A DNA stretch of 64,000 nucleotides, from the sequence record KX009778; one strand, written 5' to 3'. Of the stretch, positions 3,123-63,932 are shown one piece after another. The translations under genes and the position numbers were made by a program. The DNA comes from Escherichia phage UFV-AREG1. The notes under the pieces are model-generated. The model was not told the DNA's origin and did no database searches. It worked only from the letters and a program-made list of their open reading frames with translations. Within the stretch, counting starts at the first letter, position 1. Every line of letters starts with the position of its first letter.

Positions 3123-3677
3123 TTACCGGTAGCGACCCGGTTTCTCATTTGGTATTTCAAATTGTGTAGATTTAGTATCTAATTTTTTAACTATGGAACT
3201 TATGTCATGAAAGAAAAACCATTCGCCATTTATATGGTCCTGATTATAAATGCTGTGCATATATTTTTCAAGTTCTACTGCATCCTGGGAATATCTAAAT
3301 GATACTATTTTAAAACTTTTAAACGGTGAAAATGTATTTGCTGTTATAACTCTAACATCAGGTTCTATACTTCTTCCTATTTTATAATAATTAGGATTTG
3401 TAGTATCTACCATTATGTATACGAAAGCCTGTCGATAGCTTTTTTCTATATCAAATTCATCTTTAAATTTCAAAAGATTTAGGGCGGCAGTCCTACAAAA
3501 TACTTTCCATTTTGACAAGCGTTTAGCTTTAGTCATAGAAAAGAATTTTTTCTTATCTGTTATTTTAAGAAAAGCAACATTTTCAATTAGTTCTTGTGTT
3601 ATTTCAAAATTACCATGGTATATTAATCCAGCTTTTATAGCCAAATTAATTTGGTCCCAGTCTACATCACTTCTCAT
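3123..3677 (-). CDS. T5orf172 / GIY-YIG-like domain protein, 184 aa
   Basis: C-terminal half carries FVYIMVDTTNPNYYKIGRS ... R ... E..E..MH ... NGEWFFF, matching the GIY-YIG-like T5orf172 signature; N-terminal 85 aa unassigned. Confidence 0.6.
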   Translation of the reverse strand: MRSDVDWDQINLAIKAGLIYHGNFEITQELIENVAFLKITDKKKFFSMTKAKRLSKWKVFCRTAALNLLKFKDEFDIEKSYRQAFVYIMVDTTNPNYYKIGRSIEPDVRVITANTFSPFKSFKIVSFRYSQDAVELEKYMHSIYNQDHINGEWFFFHDISSIVKKLDTKSTQFEIPNEKPGRYR

Positions 3678-3698
3678 AATATTATTCTCTCAATAATT

Positions 3699-3775
3699 TG
3701 GCCAGGGTGAAAGGATTCTAACCTTTAACCTGCGGTTTAGAGGACCGCTACTCTATACAATTGAGTTACACCCCG
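3699..3775 (-). tRNA. tRNA-Arg (anticodon TCT), CCA encoded
   Basis: Manual cloverleaf: acceptor CGGGGTG/CACCCTG, D-stem ACTC/GAGT, anticodon stem GCGGT/ACCGC with loop CCTCTAA, T-arm AAAGG-TTAGAAT-CCTTT. Confidence 0.8.
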
Positions 3776-3901
3776 TAATTAGTTCACAGCAATACCTACT
3801 CCAACAATCAAGATGTCTTCACACGAAATTAAGAGAAAAGTGATCAGTTCAACCCTTATAATCGCGTCAAGTAGATATTAATGTGACAACTGTCACAAGT
3901 T

Positions 3902-3976
3902 TGGCGGACATGCATGGATTCGAACCATGGACCAATTGATTAACAGTCAACTGCTCTACCACTGAGCTACACATCC
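3902..3976 (-). tRNA. tRNA-Asn (anticodon GTT), CCA encoded
   Basis: Manual cloverleaf: acceptor GGATGTG/CATGTCC, D-arm GCTC-AGTGGTA-GAGC, anticodon loop CTGTTAA, T-arm CATGG-TTCGAAT-CCATG. Confidence 0.75.
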
Positions 3977-3980
3977 AAAT

Positions 3981-4067
3981 TGGTGGGGAGTGATGGAGTC
4001 GAACCACCCGAGTCGCAATGACAATGGATTTACAGTCCACACCGCTACCTCTACGGGATAACTCCCC
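3981..4067 (-). tRNA. tRNA-Tyr (anticodon GTA), type II with long variable arm, CCA encoded
   Basis: Acceptor GGGGAGT/ACTCCCC, anticodon stem GTGGA/TCCAT with loop CTGTAAA, long variable arm, T-arm GGTGG-TTCGACT-CCATC; D-arm pairing is irregular. Confidence 0.6.
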
Positions 4068-4076
4068 AAATTAATT

Positions 4077-4153
4077 TGGTGACCCAGACCAGATTTGAAC
4101 TGGTAACCTTTCCCTTATGAGGGGACTGCTGCTAACCATTGAGCTACAGGGCC
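4077..4153 (-). tRNA. tRNA with CAT anticodon (Ile-lysidine type or elongator Met), CCA encoded
   Basis: T-arm ACCAG-TTCAAAT-CTGGT, anticodon loop CTCATAA; acceptor stem has one mismatch and one G-U. Confidence 0.6.
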
Positions 4154-4154
4154 T

Positions 4155-4230
4155 TGGTGCTGATTGACGGAATCGAACCGCCGACATCCTCATTACAAGT
4201 GAGGTGCTCTACCTACTGAGCTAAATCAGC
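4155..4230 (-). tRNA. tRNA-Thr (anticodon TGT), CCA encoded
   Basis: Acceptor GCTGATT/AATCAGC, D-arm GCTC-AGTAGGTA-GAGC, anticodon stem CCTCA/TGAGG with loop CTTGTAA, T-arm GGCGG-TTCGATT-CCGTC. Confidence 0.8.
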
Positions 4231-4232
4231 AA

Positions 4233-4319
4233 CGGAGGCGATAGGATTTGAACCTATGAGTCGCCGGAGCGACTGCCGGTTTTCAAGACCGGTGCATTAA
4301 ACCACTCTGCCACGCCTCC
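4233..4319 (-). tRNA. tRNA-Ser (anticodon TGA), type II
   Basis: Acceptor GGAGGCG/CGCCTCC, anticodon stem CCGGT/ACCGG with loop CTTGAAA, long variable arm, T-arm ATAGG-TTCAAAT-CCTAT; no encoded CCA. Confidence 0.75.
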
Positions 4320-4321
4320 AG

Positions 4322-4395
4322 TCTCCATACAAGGATTTGAACCTTGGACCTCCTGATCCCAAATCAGGCGCTCTACCAAACTGAGCTACACGGAG
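4322..4395 (-). tRNA. tRNA-Pro (anticodon TGG)
   Basis: Acceptor CTCCGTG/TATGGAG (two G-U), D-arm GCTC-AGTTTGGTA-GAGC, anticodon stem CCTGA/TCAGG with loop TTTGGGA, T-arm CAAGG-TTCAAAT-CCTTG. Confidence 0.75.
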
Positions 4396-4405
4396 TAAAT
4401 TAAAT

Positions 4406-4479
<74 letters not shown>

Positions 4480-4485
4480 AAACTT

Positions 4486-4572
4486 TGGTACGAGAAGTGG
4501 GACTCGAACCCACAAGGAAATCATTCCGCAGCATTTTAAGTGCTGTGCCTTTACCAATTTGACCATTCTCGC
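4486..4572 (-). tRNA. tRNA-Leu (anticodon TAA), type II, CCA encoded
   Basis: Acceptor GCGAGAA/TTCTCGT, anticodon stem CAGCA/TGCTG with loop CTTAAAA, long variable arm, T-arm TGTGG-GTTCGAGTC-CCACT region. Confidence 0.75.
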
Positions 4573-4573
4573 G

Positions 4574-4646
4574 CTGGGAATAAAGGACTCGAACCTTTGC
4601 ATCTAGCAGTCAAAGTGCTATGCCTTACCAACTTGGCTAATTCCCA
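4574..4646 (-). tRNA. tRNA-Gln (anticodon TTG)
   Basis: Acceptor TGGGAAT/ATTCCCA, anticodon stem TAGCA/TGCTA with loop CTTTGAC, T-arm AAAGG-TTCGAGT-CCTTT. Confidence 0.75.
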
Positions 4647-4743
4647 ATTATTAACAAAGGCTCTCAGGAAAGAACCCTTGATGATAGAGGGTATTAATCA
4701 GTGCGGTATGAGTTAATAATAACAAATAATTCTTAAAGCATAT

Positions 4744-5031
4744 TTACCATTTATGATAATACATATTTACAATGCATTCAAGACCTAAAGGATTCTTGAA
4801 AATATCATATTCAAGAGGACCTTTTTCTGTTTCAATAAAGAAATCAAAATTTACTGTATTAAATTTACGGTCTTCCTTCACTAATTTAACTTGAGAAGAT
4901 GAACGGTCAACATAAACCTTTTCAACTTCAAAACATGTTAAAATGCCATAATCATCGATCAAGGCTTTAGCTGCTTCTTGATCATATTTATATCCATTTT
5001 CAATTGACGATACTTTAGCATAAAGAATCAT
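4744..5031 (-). CDS. Hypothetical protein, 95 aa (ip-locus accessory gene)
   Basis: ORF co-oriented and tightly packed downstream of the 5034..5423 gene; no recognisable motif. Confidence 0.5.
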   Translation of the reverse strand: MILYAKVSSIENGYKYDQEAAKALIDDYGILTCFEVEKVYVDRSSSQVKLVKEDRKFNTVNFDFFIETEKGPLEYDIFKNPLGLECIVNMYYHKW

Positions 5032-5033
5032 TA

Positions 5034-5423
5034 TCAGCCTTCATCAACAATAGTATGAGTGTGGGCATTTACAATTTGCCACCAATCAAAGCGATTATAA
5101 CCATACATCGGTTTGTTTTCATTTTCTTTGATAATATCACGGAGTTCATCTTCGGTAGCGGCTTTCGCGATTAAATCAGCATATCCACCACGAGGATAAT
5201 AATTATCACCTGCAAAAAGTAAAAAGTTCGGTTTAATATTATTGAACTCTTCAAGAGTAATAACTTTTCCTGTCGGTTGAACAATCTCTACATATTTATA
5301 TCCTAATTTTTGAGCAGCATCTACTGCTTCAAGCAAAGTATCATGAGCCCATCCAATTTGACAACCTGGCTTTTCAGATGGATTAGCCTGATAATCCGCG
5401 TACACTTTATACATTCTATTCAC
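5034..5423 (-). CDS. Hypothetical protein, 129 aa (ip-locus accessory gene)
   Basis: ORF overlapping the upstream small membrane-protein gene by 8 nt (likely coupled translation); no recognisable motif. Confidence 0.5.
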   Translation of the reverse strand: MNRMYKVYADYQANPSEKPGCQIGWAHDTLLEAVDAAQKLGYKYVEIVQPTGKVITLEEFNNIKPNFLLFAGDNYYPRGGYADLIAKAATEDELRDIIKENENKPMYGYNRFDWWQIVNAHTHTIVDEG

Positions 5424-5601
5424 CTTTAGAAATTTTATCCATAACGATAGCGATTAAACCAATTAAAAATGCTACTACAAGTGAAAACACATTTTCTGCT
5501 GTAGTTAATAATCCGCATATAAATCCAGCAAACATTGAAAAACTAAAAGCAGAAGCAGAAATTGCAATAGCAACATTTCGAATTAATTCACAACGTTTCA
5601 T
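5416..5601 (-). CDS. Small membrane protein, 61 aa (start moved to internal ATG)
   Basis: Track ORF 5416..5670 extends across a promoter cassette; ATG at 5601 has GAGGAG SD; two predicted TM helices (AIAISASAFSFSMFAGFICGLL, VFSLVVAFLIGLIAIVM). Confidence 0.5.
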   Translation of the reverse strand: MKRCELIRNVAIAISASAFSFSMFAGFICGLLTTAENVFSLVVAFLIGLIAIVMDKISKGE

Positions 5602-5629
5602 TTTATTCTCCTCAGTAGTTGATAGGGTA

Positions 5630-5659
5630 ATAGTATCACTACTAAAACCCAATGTAAAC
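5630..5659 (-). promoter_or_regulatory. Early-promoter/stem-loop cassette (PeSL-like): GTTTACA-N17-TACTAT
   Basis: Minus-strand GTTTACA and TACTAT hexamers 17 nt apart, followed by the conserved GAGGAGAATAAAATG ribosome-binding module. Confidence 0.55.
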
Positions 5660-5662
5660 AAT

Positions 5663-5887
5663 TTATTCAACGCCAGCGGCTTTCAAAAGTTTTTTAAGAT
5701 TGGCAACACCTTGAGCAGAAAATGTGACCTTGCCACCTTTTTCACTGATAGAACCAACCAATTTAGCAAGTTTATCATTAGGAATTTTTTTAAAATCAGC
5801 CAATGTTCCATCAAAGGTTTTTGAAACAAAAGGCAGTTCGTCTTCGCGTCTTTTAGCTTCTACAATAAATTCTTGATATGTTTTCAT
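5663..5887 (-). CDS. Internal-protein-like protein with CTS, 74 aa
   Basis: N-terminus MKTYQEFIVEA matches the T-even capsid-targeting sequence; own promoter cassette upstream. Confidence 0.65.
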   Translation of the reverse strand: MKTYQEFIVEAKRREDELPFVSKTFDGTLADFKKIPNDKLAKLVGSISEKGGKVTFSAQGVANLKKLLKAAGVE

Positions 5888-5915
5888 TTTATTCTCCTCA
5901 GTAGTTGATAGGGTA

Positions 5916-5945
5916 ATAGTATCACTACCCCATCTAAAAGTAAAC
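5916..5945 (-). promoter_or_regulatory. Early-promoter/stem-loop cassette (PeSL-like)
   Basis: Minus-strand GTTTAC -35, TACTAT -10 lying in the loop of a GGGTA/TACCC stem, then GAGGAG SD. Confidence 0.55.
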
Positions 5946-5955
5946 GGTTTATAAA

Positions 5956-6264
5956 CTATTTTATTCCGCGTGATGCAATTGTGTTCTGCCGTTTAACGCC
6001 AGTTTGTTTAAAGTCATGATTGTCGATTTGATCGGTACGAGCAACTCCGAATGATGATTTGATCTTAGCTTTAGATCCTTTAGTTATAGAAATAAACATC
6101 TCGGAAGCCCCTTTCTTAAAGTCCGAAGCGATTACTTCAACGCCGTTCTTAGCAAGTGACTTCAGAATTGCCTCTGCATACTCATCGTCAAGACTCGTCT
6201 GAGTATTAATAACGAATGTCTTTGGCGCAGCCGCTTCATTGATAAATTCTTTGAAAGTTTTCAT
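5956..6264 (-). CDS. Internal-protein-like protein with CTS, 102 aa
   Basis: N-terminus MKTFKEFINEA (CTS); own promoter cassette upstream. Confidence 0.65.
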   Translation of the reverse strand: MKTFKEFINEAAAPKTFVINTQTSLDDEYAEAILKSLAKNGVEVIASDFKKGASEMFISITKGSKAKIKSSFGVARTDQIDNHDFKQTGVKRQNTIASRGIK

Positions 6265-6294
6265 TTTATTTTCCTAATTAAGTTTGATGAGATA

Positions 6295-6324
6295 ATAGTA
6301 TCACAACCCTATTTAAAAGTAAAC
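6295..6324 (-). promoter_or_regulatory. Early-promoter/stem-loop cassette (PeSL-like)
   Basis: Minus-strand GTTTAC -35 overlapping the stop of the upstream gene, TACTAT -10, then AGGAAAATAAAATG. Confidence 0.5.
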
Positions 6325-6597
6325 TCATTTTAAATAAATTGCGTATTTTTTATAACCCGCTGACTCATGACGAAGACCCTTATCATTAGCAAAACGCTCA
6401 ATGTTGTTAATTTGATTCTGGTCAAGTTCAGAGATGTCAAACACGAAAAAGTTACGTTTGTTACCAACTGTTACATAGTCAGTTAAATCAATATCATATA
6501 GGTAATTGATGTCAGCAATCAAAGTCTTGACAGCTTTGCTAATTTTTACTTTTTCGTTAAAAGTAGCTTCATTGATAAATTCTTGATATGTTTTCAT
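6325..6597 (-). CDS. Internal-protein-like protein with CTS, 90 aa
   Basis: N-terminus MKTYQEFINEA (CTS); own promoter cassette upstream. Confidence 0.65.
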   Translation of the reverse strand: MKTYQEFINEATFNEKVKISKAVKTLIADINYLYDIDLTDYVTVGNKRNFFVFDISELDQNQINNIERFANDKGLRHESAGYKKYAIYLK

Positions 6598-6625
6598 TTT
6601 ATTCTCCTCAGTAGTTGATAGGGTA

Positions 6626-6655
6626 ATAATATCACAACTAAAACCCTATGTAAAT
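6626..6655 (-). promoter_or_regulatory. Early-promoter/stem-loop cassette (PeSL-like)
   Basis: Minus-strand ATTTACA -35, 17-nt spacer, TATTAT -10, then GAGGAGAATAAAATG. Confidence 0.5.
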
Positions 6656-6673
6656 AACTTTGTGAAAAATTTA

Positions 6674-6961
6674 TTACAAAAGATTTTTAGCAATAATCTT
6701 GAGATGTGCCGCAGAAATGTGTTTAGCTTTAAACAACGCAGTTTCTTCAGCAGGAGAGATAACGATTGTAGCACCATCCTTTTTAGCAGACCACCCATCG
6801 CCTAGGTAAACAGTACCTTTGATTTCTTCGCCATCAACCAGACTAATCATTGGTTTACCTTCTCGTCCTTTATTTGCTTTAATAACTTCAGAAGTAAGAG
6901 TAGCTTCGGTAATAGTAGAAACCGGGGTAGTTGTAGAAGTAAATTCTTTGAAAGTTTTCAT
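6674..6961 (-). CDS. ipI: Internal protein I (IPI)-like, 95 aa; predicted 19-aa CTS leaving a 76-aa mature protein
   Basis: N-terminus MKTFKEFTSTTTPVSTITE|A with ITE gp21 cleavage motif; 95 aa precursor / 76 aa mature matches T4 IPI; located next to 57B as in T4. Confidence 0.7.
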   Translation of the reverse strand: MKTFKEFTSTTTPVSTITEATLTSEVIKANKGREGKPMISLVDGEEIKGTVYLGDGWSAKKDGATIVISPAEETALFKAKHISAAHLKIIAKNLL

Positions 6962-6982
6962 TTTATTTTCCTAATTAATTTT

Positions 6983-7021
6983 GATGAGGTAATAGTATCA
7001 CTACCTCATCAGTATGTAAAC
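6983..7021 (-). promoter_or_regulatory. Early-promoter/stem-loop cassette (PeSL-like) with perfect 9-bp hairpin
   Basis: Minus-strand GTTTACA-N17-TACTAT; the -10 lies in the loop of gatgaggta / tacctcatc (6983..7010). Confidence 0.6.
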
Positions 7022-7033
7022 AACTTTGTGAAA

Positions 7034-7730
<697 letters not shown>

Positions 7731-7731
<1 letters not shown>

Positions 7732-8444
7732 TATAGTACCTTTAGTGTATTTTTAATTTTAGAAAAAAGTTCTTCAAGAGAACCATCGTTTGTAATTACT
7801 AAATCGCCACCACGAATTGGCAATCCAGCTTCTGTAATGTGTGTATCATTGGATTTTTGACCAGGACGAACTACATGAATTACTGTAGCACCCATCGCCC
7901 TAGCCGCATCCATTTCATGATCTTGACGAGTATCAGGAACGATATAATAATCATAACCTGAGTTAAATTTATCAAGATAATCTAAAGCAAATAATTTTAC
8001 CCAGTACATGCGGTCGAAGTTATTAACAATCAAATCCGTACCTAGGGCTTGCATCAGACGACGGACTGACCATTGATCTTCAATATTATTTATAACATCA
8101 GTAATTTTGTTAAATGTTACGAAATTAACTGCGTCATCAAAAACAAACACACCTTTAATTGGGCTTTTACTATTAAGATAGCAAAATGCTTGTTCCATAA
8201 TCGTAATTACTTCTAATTTAGTCAGATTTAAATTAGTTTCACGATCATAGTCAATTCCTTCAAACTCTTTACGAGTTAAACAAGGATAGTCAGTGTTTGC
8301 TGCAAATACACCCCATGCATAAGCCAATGCATCCTTAATAGGACCAGCAAGTTGATATTTAACTGCAGAATAATTGCTCATGATAAAATCAGCAGTAGTA
8401 TCTTTTCCACTACGCTTTACACCGCTTAAAAAGATTAGTTTCAT
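7731..8444 (-). CDS. 1: gp1 deoxynucleoside monophosphate kinase
   Basis: P-loop GVKRSGKDT near N-terminus; start moved to ATG at 8444 with GAGGAG SD (track ORF has 13-aa extension); position matches T4. Confidence 0.85.
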
Positions 8445-8493
8445 GTGTTTCTCCTCAAATTTAATTAAGATTATAACACACAAAACTGAAGCA

Positions 8494-9024
8494 TTAAACT
8501 TCTGCTATAATTTTTCCATCTTTTTCTACTTGAAAATAGGTGTAAGGAATCGTTGCAGTACATACTAAAGCCGGGTCTGAATCTTCCGTATAGCTAAATT
8601 CTACTTCAGACAGGTCAGAAACCCAAGGCTTATAAAAATTTATTGACATCACGATTTCAGTTTTGCTATTATCTAAGATGTAAAGCGTAATGTACTCAGG
8701 ACCTGTTTTTTGGGCAGTATTTTCACCTGTAAGATAGTTGCTAGTTCCTAGCATCCATTCATACATTCCTATCCACGACTTAAGTTCTTCATCGACTATA
8801 AATCTCACAATGAGTGGATCATACTCAAATGTAACTCCTGGACGCTGTGCTCGGCCTAGTCCAAACGGCCCAGTCACGGTATCAGTAACAGGTATCCTAA
8901 TTCCTGGAATAGGAACTGACTGAGCATTTAAAGTAAAAGCAGATGTAGTATTACTATGCGGTATTGATACTACAAAGTTAGTTGTATTTGCTTGATTAAA
9001 AATTTGTTGCAATGCTTGCGACAT
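8494..9024 (-). CDS. 3: gp3 tail completion / sheath stabiliser
   Basis: 176 aa from internal ATG at 9024 (MSQALQQIFNQ...), matching T4 gp3 length; track ORF carries a 27-aa extension. Confidence 0.8.
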   Translation of the reverse strand: MSQALQQIFNQANTTNFVVSIPHSNTTSAFTLNAQSVPIPGIRIPVTDTVTGPFGLGRAQRPGVTFEYDPLIVRFIVDEELKSWIGMYEWMLGTSNYLTGENTAQKTGPEYITLYILDNSKTEIVMSINFYKPWVSDLSEVEFSYTEDSDPALVCTATIPYTYFQVEKDGKIIAEV

Positions 9025-63078: not shown

Positions 63079-63444
63079 TTAAATATCAAATTCGTTAAGA
63101 ACTACATCAAAGATTGCTTCAAGATGCTCAGGTTTAGCTCTGTTACTCAGAATATGACGAATCCAAGTTTTAACTAGAAGCTTGCGATTAGCACCATTCC
63201 AGCAAGGATGAGTCCCTAAATCGCGTTGACGGAAATCATCATCTAATGCGATTTTGAAGTTGGAACCTTCCATCGTGATGGAAACTGTAATACCATTTTC
63301 AAATCGCATATAAACGTAGTTAGGAGTCATATACTGTTCAATTTCGCATACTGATCCATTTTGATGTTTCCAAAGGCAGATGGTATCAATAGAACCTGCA
63401 ATACCATTAGAAACATATTTACGTTCAAAGTTGATGTAGTTCAT
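63079..63444 (-). CDS. Hypothetical protein, 121 aa
   Basis: ORF in the 30.x early gene block. Confidence 0.55.
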   Translation of the reverse strand: MNYINFERKYVSNGIAGSIDTICLWKHQNGSVCEIEQYMTPNYVYMRFENGITVSITMEGSNFKIALDDDFRQRDLGTHPCWNGANRKLLVKTWIRHILSNRAKPEHLEAIFDVVLNEFDI

Positions 63445-63512
63445 TTTTATTCTCCGAGATGTTTAATTGCGGTACAGGTATATAATATCATATCCTGTAC
63501 CAAAGTAAACAA

Positions 63513-63845
63513 TTATTTTACTACTTTCCAATGCTTCATGTCAAGTTTACCAACTTTTTTCATCTTCTCAATTAAGCGTTCGGCACGTTGGCGAGCTGTA
63601 ACATAATGCCATTCGCCTAATTCATTTTGTTCAATTTTTCCAACGATTACTGTATTCAATTCATAAATCCAACCAGTAAAGAAATTATGAACTTGAATTG
63701 TAAAGGTGAAATCTGTTCCCATACCTTCTGTTGTTTCTACTTCAATAATATCACCTTCAACTGCCATTAAGAACCACATAGTTTCATCATATTTACCATT
63801 GAAGCATTTAGTTTTAACTGTAGCGTTCAGATTAATCGTTTTCAT
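63513..63845 (-). CDS. Hypothetical protein, 110 aa, behind a PeSL-like cassette
   Basis: ORF with the same upstream promoter/RBS cassette as the ip-locus genes; no CTS. Confidence 0.55.
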   Translation of the reverse strand: MKTINLNATVKTKCFNGKYDETMWFLMAVEGDIIEVETTEGMGTDFTFTIQVHNFFTGWIYELNTVIVGKIEQNELGEWHYVTARQRAERLIEKMKKVGKLDMKHWKVVK

Positions 63846-63863
63846 TTTATTCTCCTTTGTTTG

Positions 63864-63902
63864 TGTAAGATAATACTATCACAAAGGAACTATACTGTAA
63901 AC
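63864..63902 (-). promoter_or_regulatory. Early-promoter/stem-loop cassette (PeSL-like): GTTTACA-N17-TAGTAT
   Basis: Minus-strand GTTTACA -35, TAGTAT -10 within the loop of cctttgt / acaaagg hairpin, then AGGAGAATAAAATG. Confidence 0.55.
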
Positions 63903-63932
63903 AACTTTATGCAATCTTTGGAAAATAAAAAA

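Follow-up and report, generated by a model that had tools for sequence, protein, structure and literature searches.

The window, the whole stretch of 64,000 nucleotides that was analysed, contains the ipI locus of a Tequatrovirus, which is encoded on the minus strand. The fixed upstream anchor of the gene array is 57B, coding for the anti-CBASS protein Acb1 (7034..7489; Pfam Acb1, E 7e-60). Four internal protein (IP) genes follow. The first is ipI (6674..6961), specifying internal protein I, which inhibits the type IV restriction enzyme GmrSD (Pfam IPI_T4, E 7e-54; phrog_4363). IPb (6325..6597; 90 aa; phrog_7673, E 4e-55) and IPc (5956..6264; 102 aa; phrog_2667, E 5e-41) belong to internal head protein families, and IPd (5663..5887; 74 aa; phrog_8765, E 2e-25) to an internal virion protein family. 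The homologue of IPc in phage P922 is annotated 'internal head protein 7' and that of IPd in phage CM8 'Ip8', and the two genes are called Ip7 and Ip8 below. The last gene with a repeated element in front of it is a homologue of trna.4 (5416..5601; phrog_1692), which is not an IP gene and encodes a 61-aa predicted membrane protein. Each of the four IPs has a leader and a gp21-type Glu-Ala site (MKTFKEFTSTT..ITE/A in ipI, MKTYQEFINE/A in IPb, MKTFKEFINE/A in Ip7 and MKTYQEFIVE/A in Ip8), and trna.4 is without the capsid-targeting leader. The same four-IP array is found in phages EP01 and KIT06; about 900 GenBank genomes matched a 2.8-kb query from the locus (window 4700-7500), and no phage record covered more than 87% of it.

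Five copies of one element of about 70 nt precede ipI, the three other IP genes and trna.4, all on the minus strand. The start codons of these cassettes, which we name by position, lie exactly where they had been predicted, at 5601, 5887, 6264, 6597 and 6961. Cassette c6961 (6929..7033), between 57B/acb1 and ipI, comprises a -35 hexamer TTTACA (7020-7015), a -10 hexamer TACTAT (6997-6992), the SD AGGAAAA, the ATG at 6961 and the leader MKTFKEFTSTT. Between ipI and IPb lies c6597 (6565..6673), with -35 TTTACA (6654-6649), -10 TATTAT (6631-6626), SD GAGGAG, ATG 6597 and leader MKTYQEFINEA. IPb and Ip7 are separated by c6264 (6232..6324), whose -35 TTTACT (6323-6318) is 2 nt 3' of the IPb stop codon (6325-6327) and is followed by -10 TACTAT (6300-6295), ATG 6264 and leader MKTFKEFINEA. 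Cassette c5887 (5855..5955), between Ip7 and Ip8, has -35 TTTACT (5944-5939), -10 TACTAT (5921-5916), SD GAGGAG, ATG 5887 and leader MKTYQEFIVEA, and c5601 (5596..5662), between Ip8 and trna.4, has -35 TTTACA (5658-5653) and -10 TACTAT (5635-5630). Across the cassettes the -35 hexamer is 2-16 nt from the stop codon of the upstream gene, and the SD, GAGGAG in three and AGGAAAA in two, is 6-7 nt 5' of the ATG. The stretch upstream of the promoter is 74-83% A+T in four cassettes and 52% at c5601.

All five cassettes match the T4 early promoter consensus, with GTTTAC or ATTTAC, 14 nt and then GTGATAYTAT. The consensus itself, GTTTAC-N14-gtggTAttaT, was taken from the record of phage SA21RB, where it is quoted from Miller 2003; that record marks both sites homologous to the cassettes as T4 early promoters, with Miller 2003 as the source, and also lists predicted terminators at them. 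The pattern TTTACW-N17-TAYWAT, published for the PeSLs of T4 and Yersinia phage PST (Comeau, Arbiol and Krisch 2014, PMC4122927), has six matches in the 64-kb window, of which five are the cassettes (0.31 expected). TTTAC-N14-GTGATAYTATTAYC matches exactly at all five and, with one mismatch, at 63869 (0.01 expected in the window). In addition, a cassette HMM gave scores of 50-70 bits to the five copies, and the runner-up in the window scored 22 bits. Some details of the original prediction required adjustment. Its -35 sequence, GTTTACA, is present in two of the five cassettes, the others having GTTTACT (two) or ATTTACA (one), and TTTACW is common to all; the spacer, given as 17-18 nt, measured 17 nt in every cassette. 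The -10 sequence proved as predicted, TACTAT in four and TATTAT in one, and is directly preceded by GTGA in all five. The cassettes are accordingly predicted early promoters. The GenBank and RefSeq records of T4 are without promoter features at the ipI locus, and a literature search for T4 transcription-start maps covering it gave nothing usable. Weaker matches to the cassette HMM were also seen at other early promoters in the window (63907-63843, E 9e-6, and 2123-2042).

The cassettes fall into two subtypes, type A with the SD GAGGAG (c5601, c5887 and c6597) and type B with AGGAAAA (c6264 and c6961). The ribosome-binding module GAGGAGAATAAAATG, which had been thought common to all, is present in three of the five; c6264 and c6961 carry TTAGGAAAATAAAATG. 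Similarly, the claim that the copies are near-identical over 40-50 bp holds inside a subtype, with exact blocks of 37-54 nt (A-A) or 39 nt (B-B), but not between subtypes, where the exact blocks are 12-19 nt only. In the four IP genes the repeat also covers roughly the first 30 nt of coding sequence, which had been overlooked; this part (MKTYQEFI or MKTFKEFI) encodes the capsid-targeting leader. Cassettes c5601 and c5887 share a 47-nt exact block ending at ATGAAA, and c5601 is without an IP leader. The order of subtypes along the array is B-A-B-A-A, and most neighbouring cassettes share just 14-19 nt of exact homology. The sole adjacent pair of the same subtype flanks Ip8, a gene missing from 10 of the 16 relatives examined.

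The inverted repeat at c6961 (6983-7010) is exactly as described before: its arms, GATGAGGTA and TACCTCATC, form 9+9 bp, and the RNA folds at -17.4 kcal/mol (z -5.2). A significant hairpin was found in this cassette and in c5887 (arms GATGGGGTA and TACCCTATC, with one G.U pair; z -2.8) only, and it is weak or absent in the other three. The hairpins of c5601 and c6597 are weak and in a different register (z about -0.9; for c6597, 7+4 bp, ATAGGGT..ACCCTAT, z -0.95). The RNA fold of c6264 contained no hairpin (z +0.56), its 5' arm ATAGGGT being unpaired with its 3' arm TATCTCATC, and the hairpin is likewise missing from its orthologues in 8 of 10 phages, yet the cassette persists.

We also considered the hairpin across the cassette family, using 57 unique cassettes from about 35 loci, which are not phylogenetically independent. 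Native pairs of 5' and 3' halves had a mean folding energy of -11.2 kcal/mol, compared with -7.5 +/- 0.43 for permuted pairings, and none of 1000 permutations reached the native value. In an unselected alignment of 47 sequences, one register was 61.9% paired (33-52% with the partners slid), double changes occurred in 7 of 10 pairs, and the covariation score was 0.199 versus 0.156 +/- 0.013 in shuffles, of which 0/500 reached 0.199. The arm pairs are lineage-specific: GATGAGGTA/TACCTCATC, GATAGGGTA/TACCCTATC, AGGGCTAT/ATAGCCCT, TAGGACTA/TAGTCCTA and GATGGGATAA/TTATCCCATC. Because the arms covary with compensatory changes across cassettes, these results indicate that the hairpin structure is under selection. 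The stem-loop is thus a feature of the cassette family and not of each copy. Sense RNA folded better than antisense in 46 of the 57 cassettes, with 74 G.U pairs in sense and 36 in antisense. This G.U strand bias could stem from strand-specific mutation instead of RNA function. A terminator scan at the cassettes found none, A-rich sequence rather than a U-run following the hairpins, and intrinsic (rho-independent) terminators were rejected since the stems have no T-run on their 3' side. When the region 3500-8500 was searched with Rfam covariance models, tRNAs alone reached the curated threshold; a few sub-threshold hits overlapped them, and nothing was found at the cassettes.

Related genomes were compared at this locus, as had been proposed. 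The outcome was positive: in BLAST comparisons with 11 related loci, every homology break in the IP array, and with it every gain or loss of a gene there, fell inside a cassette or no more than 2 nt from one (5642, 5659, 5664, 5882, 6308, 6592, 6603, 6667, 6927 and 6940). The description of the modules as shuffleable goes too far: the presence or absence of genes varies, with 10 configurations among 17 Tequatrovirus-type loci, but all of these are colinear subsets and no reordering was seen. Indels next to the array also occur at gene boundaries that have no cassette: EP01 is without trna.3 (5041/5417), and several phages have an extra gene at 4750/4764. Given these cassette-free indels, breakpoint position alone is no proof of a recombination hot spot, and the positions of the breakpoints could in part be due to selection for intact genes. 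In BYEP02, genes contain three tandem duplications of some 78 nt each, which were probable assembly errors and were left out of the breakpoints.

Several cassettes are chimeric. The single cassette of T4, between ipI and trna.4, is a clean hybrid with the 5' part of c6597 and the 3' part of c5601. Each half of a cassette keeps to the gene that it adjoins, the 5' half to the upstream and the 3' half to the downstream one. In the window, c6264 combines a type-A-like 5' arm with a type-B 3' arm; the Ip5-ipI cassette of CM8 joins arm A to UTR B, and a cassette of FL12 joins UTR B to the IPb leader, so that the chimeras differ in crossover point. The same-subtype pairs in the array predict four deletions. 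Two were found as whole configurations, ipI only in T4 and Ip7-Ip8 in ZCEC14. The third predicted junction, Ip7-trna.4, is present in 236Ecol005PP, FL12, S143_2, F25 and UViG2932, though without ipI, and the fourth, ipI-Ip8, in CM8 via a type-C leader. For ipI-Ip8 we had expected a direct hybrid of two type A cassettes; this was rejected, since CM8 has the configuration but, with its type C leader, does not have that simple hybrid. The MKTYQ/MKTFK differences between leaders were also rejected as recombinational swaps for most orthologous IP genes: synonymous neighbour sites stay with the gene (ACA-TAT-CAA versus ACA-TTT-AAA in IPb; ACT-TTC-AAA versus ACT-TAC-CAA in Ip7), which indicates paired point changes.

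The PeSL architecture originally predicted is supported: in a hyperplastic locus, AT-rich sequence is followed by an early promoter of T4 type, with a stem-loop that overlaps the -10, and then by an SD and an ATG. We estimate a probability of roughly 0.8 that the five elements are PeSL-type intercistronic cassettes of the T-even ipI locus, with the whole mechanism as proposed. Each cassette would be a self-contained early expression unit, consisting of the AT-rich stretch, an early promoter, a leader with the SD and the ATG. Transcription would start about 7 nt 3' of the -10, leaving a leader of about 20 nt that includes the SD, and in the IP genes the cassette would run on into the capsid-targeting leader of 10-11 codons. 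Since the transcript of the cassette's own promoter would start inside the 3' arm, the hairpin would form only in RNA reading through from upstream. Such RNA might come from the preceding cassette or from a late promoter in gene 1. The late-promoter motif TATAAATA inside gene 1 (8087..8094, minus strand), a site annotated as a late promoter in SA21RB, is a possible source of read-through transcripts in which the cassette hairpins could form. In read-through RNA the hairpin may serve as an intercistronic 3' stabiliser, an attenuator or a processing boundary. Because cassettes of the same subtype share exact blocks of 37-54 nt, T4 homologous recombination could pair non-allelic cassettes or those of co-infecting phages. 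Through such pairing an IP gene would be lost, gained or exchanged as a whole, and each gene would keep its promoter and ribosome site.

The repeats could instead be no more than 5' ends (promoter, ribosome site and capsid-targeting leader) kept alike by purifying selection in a family of tandemly duplicated genes whose bodies diverge in an arms race, with no special role in recombination and only whole-gene recombinants surviving. The similarity is in part that of any T4 early promoter and RBS to the consensus, as the weak HMM matches at other early promoters show, and the leader is under functional constraint as a capsid-targeting sequence (PMC3012670). The switch of leader residues 4-5 between YQ and FK through point mutation rather than exchange, and the indels that respect gene boundaries outside the array without cassettes, are also consistent with this explanation. 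However, the same cassette, with its 47-nt exact block, precedes trna.4, a non-IP gene without the leader, and there is no obvious cause for the 28-nt identity of the -10-to-SD 5' UTR across unrelated genes. Furthermore, the cassette halves assort independently with their flanking genes, several chimeras with differing crossover points exist, and the junctions are clean hybrids with zero bases gained or missing. We regard conserved 5' ends alone as an improbable explanation. Very improbable, in our judgement, is that the hairpin is an attC-like signal for site-specific recombination, at which a phage enzyme dedicated to it, a recombinase or a structure-specific nuclease, makes the exchange at a fixed point. 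Binding of a protein to the conserved stem-loop was raised by Arbiol 2010 (PMC2839356), and the junction between upstream-linked and downstream-linked sequence is often in the hairpin loop or -10 core. Crossover points nevertheless vary among the -10 core, the arm/UTR boundary, the SD/ATG and the leader, the arms differ between lineages with complementarity alone kept, and a cassette without a hairpin still serves as a junction. The locus showed no gene resembling an integrase, and Pfam and PHROG family matches of its genes included no recombinase domain. Short homology suffices for T4 recombination, according to Singer 1982 as cited in PMC2839356. Integron gene cassettes resemble those described here in being small promoter-associated modules, bounded by imperfect inverted repeats, in arrays of varying content. 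In contrast to integron attC sites, the present cassettes are without an integrase, a fixed crossover point or conserved core sites, each module has its own promoter, and with their varying crossover positions they do not qualify as attC-type elements.

It is also conceivable, although unlikely, that the inverted repeat acts in DNA, as a cruciform or an operator-like symmetric site modulating the promoter, or else that it is a true intrinsic terminator insulating each module. Such repeats bracket the -10 at many T4 early promoters (among them ipII, with 13-bp arms, ipIII, denV and e.7) and, in the window, at 63510 and 63890. At the two homologous cassettes of T4 type in SA21RB, terminators were predicted with WebGeSTer and TransTermHP, and terminator/attenuator activity was measured for an RB49 PeSL stem-loop (Arbiol 2010, PMC2839356); the terminator function measured for RB49 PeSLs may not apply here. 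The frequent G.T oppositions on the sense strand, which pair in RNA and not in DNA, and the poorer antisense folds argue against action in DNA, as do folds with DNA parameters, all of them weak (z -1.2 to +0.7) but that of c6961. The arm sequences are unconserved, against an operator, and a terminator is opposed by stems without a following T-run. A tentative extension, which we hold to be possible but doubtful, is that the hairpin around the -10 is an RNA element common to many T-even early promoters, on which selection acts in transcripts that read through, late ones included, and which there stabilises or insulates the cistrons or marks a processing boundary between them and, separately, that subtype alternation is a selected protection of single anti-restriction genes from loss by unequal crossing-over. 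Neither idea was found stated in the accessible literature.

The original prediction is correct and its subject already known: papers of 1994, 2010 and 2014 had described the element and proposed its role, and little is therefore added as discovery. Repoila, Tetart, Bouet and Krisch (EMBO J 1994), as summarised in PMC2839356, PMC4122927 and PMC12373910, attributed the variation in the number and identity of IP genes to PeSL-like elements at the T-even IP loci. In these secondary descriptions, the intercistronic repeats of 1994 share with the cassettes the ipI locus adjoining 57B, the phage group and a conserved IP leader of about 11 residues; the array in the window is one particular four-IP set. 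The name PeSL comes from Arbiol 2010 (PMC2839356) and Comeau 2014 (PMC4122927), the latter reporting five IP differences between PST and T4. The T4/PST PeSLs (PMC4122927) have the same promoter consensus, stem-loop, SD and ATG, in a hyperplastic region with adjoining indels. Their stems are often AGNA-loop-TCNT just 5' of the promoter, whereas the arms here lie on either side of the -10, as in the subclass that Arbiol 2010 calls 'overlapping the -10', and form stems of 7-13 bp with lineage-specific sequences. The PeSLs of RB49 and phi1 (PMC2839356) are likewise composites of promoter, stem-loop and RBS that flank small accessory genes, with inter-copy recombination explaining indels, and mapping placed their crossovers either in the loop or in the interval from the -10 to the ATG (PMC2839356). 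Those of RB49 differ in having near-consensus sigma-70 promoters, G-run/C-run stems, measured terminator activity and detected mini-circles (PMC2839356). Arbiol 2010 (PMC2839356) described the IP-locus elements, with their weaker AT-rich stems, as analogues and not homologues of the RB49/phi1 PeSLs.

Internal proteins, which are injected together with the DNA, disable restriction enzymes of type IV, and the content of the array thus helps to set host range; the GmrSD that is blocked differs between Ip1, Ip2 and Ip3 (PMC12373910). The cassettes would explain how T-even phages swap IP genes in and out with expression unbroken. For this genome, the annotation gained comprises four IP genes, each with its own predicted early promoter, and a set of predicted recombination junctions.

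All five ~70-base cassettes of the original prediction were confirmed in the sequence, each joining a predicted early promoter, an SD and an ATG, with a hairpin of varying strength in four of the five. We name them by the start codon of the minus-strand gene that follows. The window comes from a T4-like genome (Tequatrovirus) whose ipI region genes lie on the minus strand; their order agrees with the ipI locus in the T4 and SA21RB records: 57A, 57B/Acb1 (7489-7034, Pfam Acb1), four genes with an internal protein (IP) leader, trna.4 (5601-5416, preceded by c5601), trna.3, trna.2 and ten tRNA genes. The IP genes are ipI (6961-6674, c6961; Pfam IPI_T4, E 7e-54), IPb (6597-6325, c6597; phrog_7673), an Ip7-like gene (6264-5956, c6264; phrog_2667) and an Ip8-like gene (5887-5663, c5887; phrog_8765), the names Ip7 and Ip8 being taken from annotations of phages P922 and CM8.

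A pattern of the -35, extended -10 and start of the 3' arm matched all five cassettes exactly (0.01 expected by chance). The window cassettes also fit the promoter consensus published for T4/PST promoter-early stem-loops (PeSLs; Comeau et al. 2014, PMC4122927): TTTACW-N17-TAYWAT gave six matches across the 64 kb, where 0.31 were expected, and five of these lie in this locus. An HMM made from the five copies scored them at 50-70 bits and the best other window site at 22 bits, a gap indicating a likeness well beyond the general T4 early promoter and ribosome-binding-site consensus. The spacer, predicted as 17-18 nt, was 17 nt in all copies, and the predicted -35 GTTTACA was exact in two copies but not in the other three. 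Two subtypes were found, A (c5601, c5887 and c6597; leader TACCCTATCAACTACTGAGGAGAATAAA) and B (c6264 and c6961; leader TAYCTCATCAAANTTAATTAGGAAAATAAA). The predicted near-identity over 40-50 bp held within subtypes, with exact blocks of 37-54 nt (A-A) and 39 nt (B-B), but not between them (12-19 nt). In the four IP genes the repeat reaches ~30 nt past the start of the coding sequence and there specifies the capsid-targeting leader; at trna.4 it ends at ATGAAA.

GGAG, the motif cleaved by the T4 RegB endoribonuclease, lies within the SD of type A leaders and is missing from type B leaders (UUAGGAAAA), so the speed of early mRNA inactivation could differ between the subtypes. Leader residues 4-5 (window 6950-6952, 6586-6588, 6253-6255 and 5876-5878) were Tyr-Gln or Phe-Lys, rarely Tyr-Lys or Ser-Lys, in the window IP genes and their orthologues. 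Orthologous genes switched between Tyr-Gln and Phe-Lys by paired point mutations while neighbouring synonymous sites stayed constant, which suggests that the two residues are coupled within the capsid-targeting sequence.

In the window, c6961 (z -5.2) and c5887 (z -2.8) carry a strong hairpin; at c5601 and c6597 it is weak and in a different register, and at c6264 it is missing because a type-A-like 5' arm is there joined to a type B 3' arm. Most of 57 unique cassettes from 11 GenBank and 24 IMG/VR loci had a 7-13-bp stem around the -10, with arm sequences that vary between lineages. In their native pairings, the 5' and 3' halves of these 57 folded at -11.2 kcal/mol, compared with -7.5 +/- 0.43 kcal/mol when permuted, and none of 1000 permutations equalled the native value. 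In an unselected 47-sequence alignment, one register was 61.9% paired (33-52% for slid partners), compensatory double changes occurred in seven of ten pairs, and the covariation score exceeded all 500 shuffles. We conclude that the inverted repeat is under selection. Sense RNA folded better than antisense in 46 of the 57 cassettes, with twice as many G.U pairs; this points to a role in RNA, although strand-biased mutation could give the same pattern. A transcript from the cassette's own promoter should begin within the 3' arm, so that the hairpin would need a read-through transcript from upstream in order to form; a late-promoter motif at 8087-8094 is one possible source of such RNA. A T-run followed none of the stems, ruling out canonical intrinsic terminators.

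The cassette halves assort with the flanking genes. The 5' half (stop codon, -35, 5' arm) accompanies the upstream gene, and the 3' half (3' arm, leader, SD) mostly the downstream gene. The single T4 ipI-trna.4 cassette is a clean c6597/c5601 hybrid, and chimeras with differing crossover points were found: c6264, the CM8 Ip5-ipI cassette (arm A, UTR B) and an FL12 cassette (UTR B, IPb leader). Same-subtype pairs in the array predict four deletions. Two are seen as complete arrays, T4 having ipI only and ZCEC14 having Ip7-Ip8. The third predicted junction, Ip7-trna.4, was found in 236Ecol005PP, FL12, S143_2, F25 and UViG2932, but these loci lack ipI; CM8 has the fourth, ipI-Ip8, via a different leader type. 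Together these observations are consistent with homology-driven recombination whose crossover points vary; a fixed-site mechanism does not fit, as crossover points differ between chimeras. We infer from sequence that the promoters are active, how the hairpin functions and by which pathway the cassettes recombine. Two cassettes carried internal slippage: in FL12 an SD segment (GGAAAATAAGGAAAATAAA) is duplicated ahead of Ip7 (~2060-2081 of its locus), and another locus (L024, ~5180-5251) has a tandem repeat of GATACTATTACCTCATCAA, comprising the -10 and 3' arm. Both resemble the 'degraded' PeSLs that Comeau et al. 2014 (PMC4122927) ascribed to recombinational slippage.

Among GenBank phages, coverage of the 2.8-kb query around the locus (window 4700-7500) was 87% at most. 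By BLAST against 11 loci, every homology break in the array (5642, 5659, 5664, 5882, 6308, 6592, 6603, 6667, 6927, 6940) fell within a cassette or ≤2 nt from one, as predicted; the intergenic DNA of the array consists of cassettes, making breaks at cassettes inseparable from breaks between genes. Outside the array, indels occurred at gene boundaries that have no cassette: EP01 lacks exactly trna.3 (5034-5423; breaks at 5041 and 5417), and several phages have an extra gene at 4750/4764. Selection for intact genes thus contributes to the breakpoint pattern. Seventeen loci, mutually related so that counts are not independent events, showed ten configurations, all colinear subsets: ipI alone (T4, SA21RB, BYEP02), ipI-IPb-Ip7-Ip8 (the window, EP01, KIT06), IPb-Ip7 (236Ecol005PP, FL12, S143_2, F25), Ip7-Ip8 (ZCEC14), Ip5-IPb-Ip7-Ip8 (VEc74), Ip5-ipI-Ip8 (CM8), ipI-Ip7 (P922), Ip5-IPf, Ip7 alone and IPf alone. 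The modules, predicted to be shuffleable, were gained, lost and replaced but not reordered in these 17 loci.

The trna.3 of T4 departs from the window sequence over 5216-5412. BYEP02 (OR757454.1) has three tandem duplications that disrupt reading frames in trna.4/trna.3, ipI and 57B (window 5453-5530, 6764-6842 and 7347-7423), and their uniform ~78-nt size suggests assembly errors. In Shigella phage CM8 (MK962750.1, 69853-72936) the Ip5-ipI block occurs twice around a truncated 57B fragment, followed by Ip8 and trna.4; either the IP locus has truly undergone a tandem duplication or the assembly is at fault.

The -10 also lies inside a hairpin with unrelated arms at T4 ipII (13-bp arms, CCTAGAATTGTGA/TCACAATTCTAGG), ipIII, denV and e.7 (T4 63500-71500). 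Two further minus-strand early promoters of the window (63440-63910) have this layout, likewise with unrelated arms, at 63510 (GGTACAGG..CCTGTACC) and 63890 (TTTGTG..CACAAA). The layout seems to be general among T-even early promoters.

Arbiol et al. 2010 (PMC2839356), discussing the elements that Repoila et al. (1994) saw at the IP loci, describe them as built on early promoters of T4, with stems that are AT-rich and weaker; they regard them as analogues, not homologues, of RB49 PeSLs and suggest that they may account for the plasticity of those loci. Comeau et al. 2014 (PMC4122927) widened the PeSL concept to T4/PST and cited the IP locus again. The PeSL reading of the original prediction is thus the published interpretation, and our tests support it: the cassettes are real and were read correctly, but they belong to a kind that is already known and are no new discovery. 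Modest additions are quantitative evidence that hairpin arms covary across Tevenvirinae, the recognition of two subtypes that alternate along the array, the finding that cassette halves assort with the flanking genes, and the absence of reordering from the sample. The description is useful for annotating the anti-restriction arsenal of this genome.

Elsewhere on the minus strand, a 157-aa ORF (2288-2761) opens with an IP-like leader, MKSYAQFLNEA; the region ahead of it, up to 2860, holds a GC-rich terminator hairpin and, at 2798-2805, a TATAAATA late-promoter motif. The protein falls in phrog_2280, of unknown function, and all 25 records listed among 510 phage matches call it 'hypothetical'; it may be a packaged internal protein that has gone unrecognised, encoded away from the two classical IP loci. 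A 184-aa ORF (3123-3677, minus strand) between tRNA-Arg and the downstream genes matched phrog_5032 (E 2e-59, function unknown) and, weakly, homing-endonuclease PHROG families (E 1e-7 to 1e-8). In the corresponding tRNA region of T4, segB adjoins tRNA-Arg. A candidate mobile endonuclease at so short a distance could likewise promote exchange of the DNA around it.
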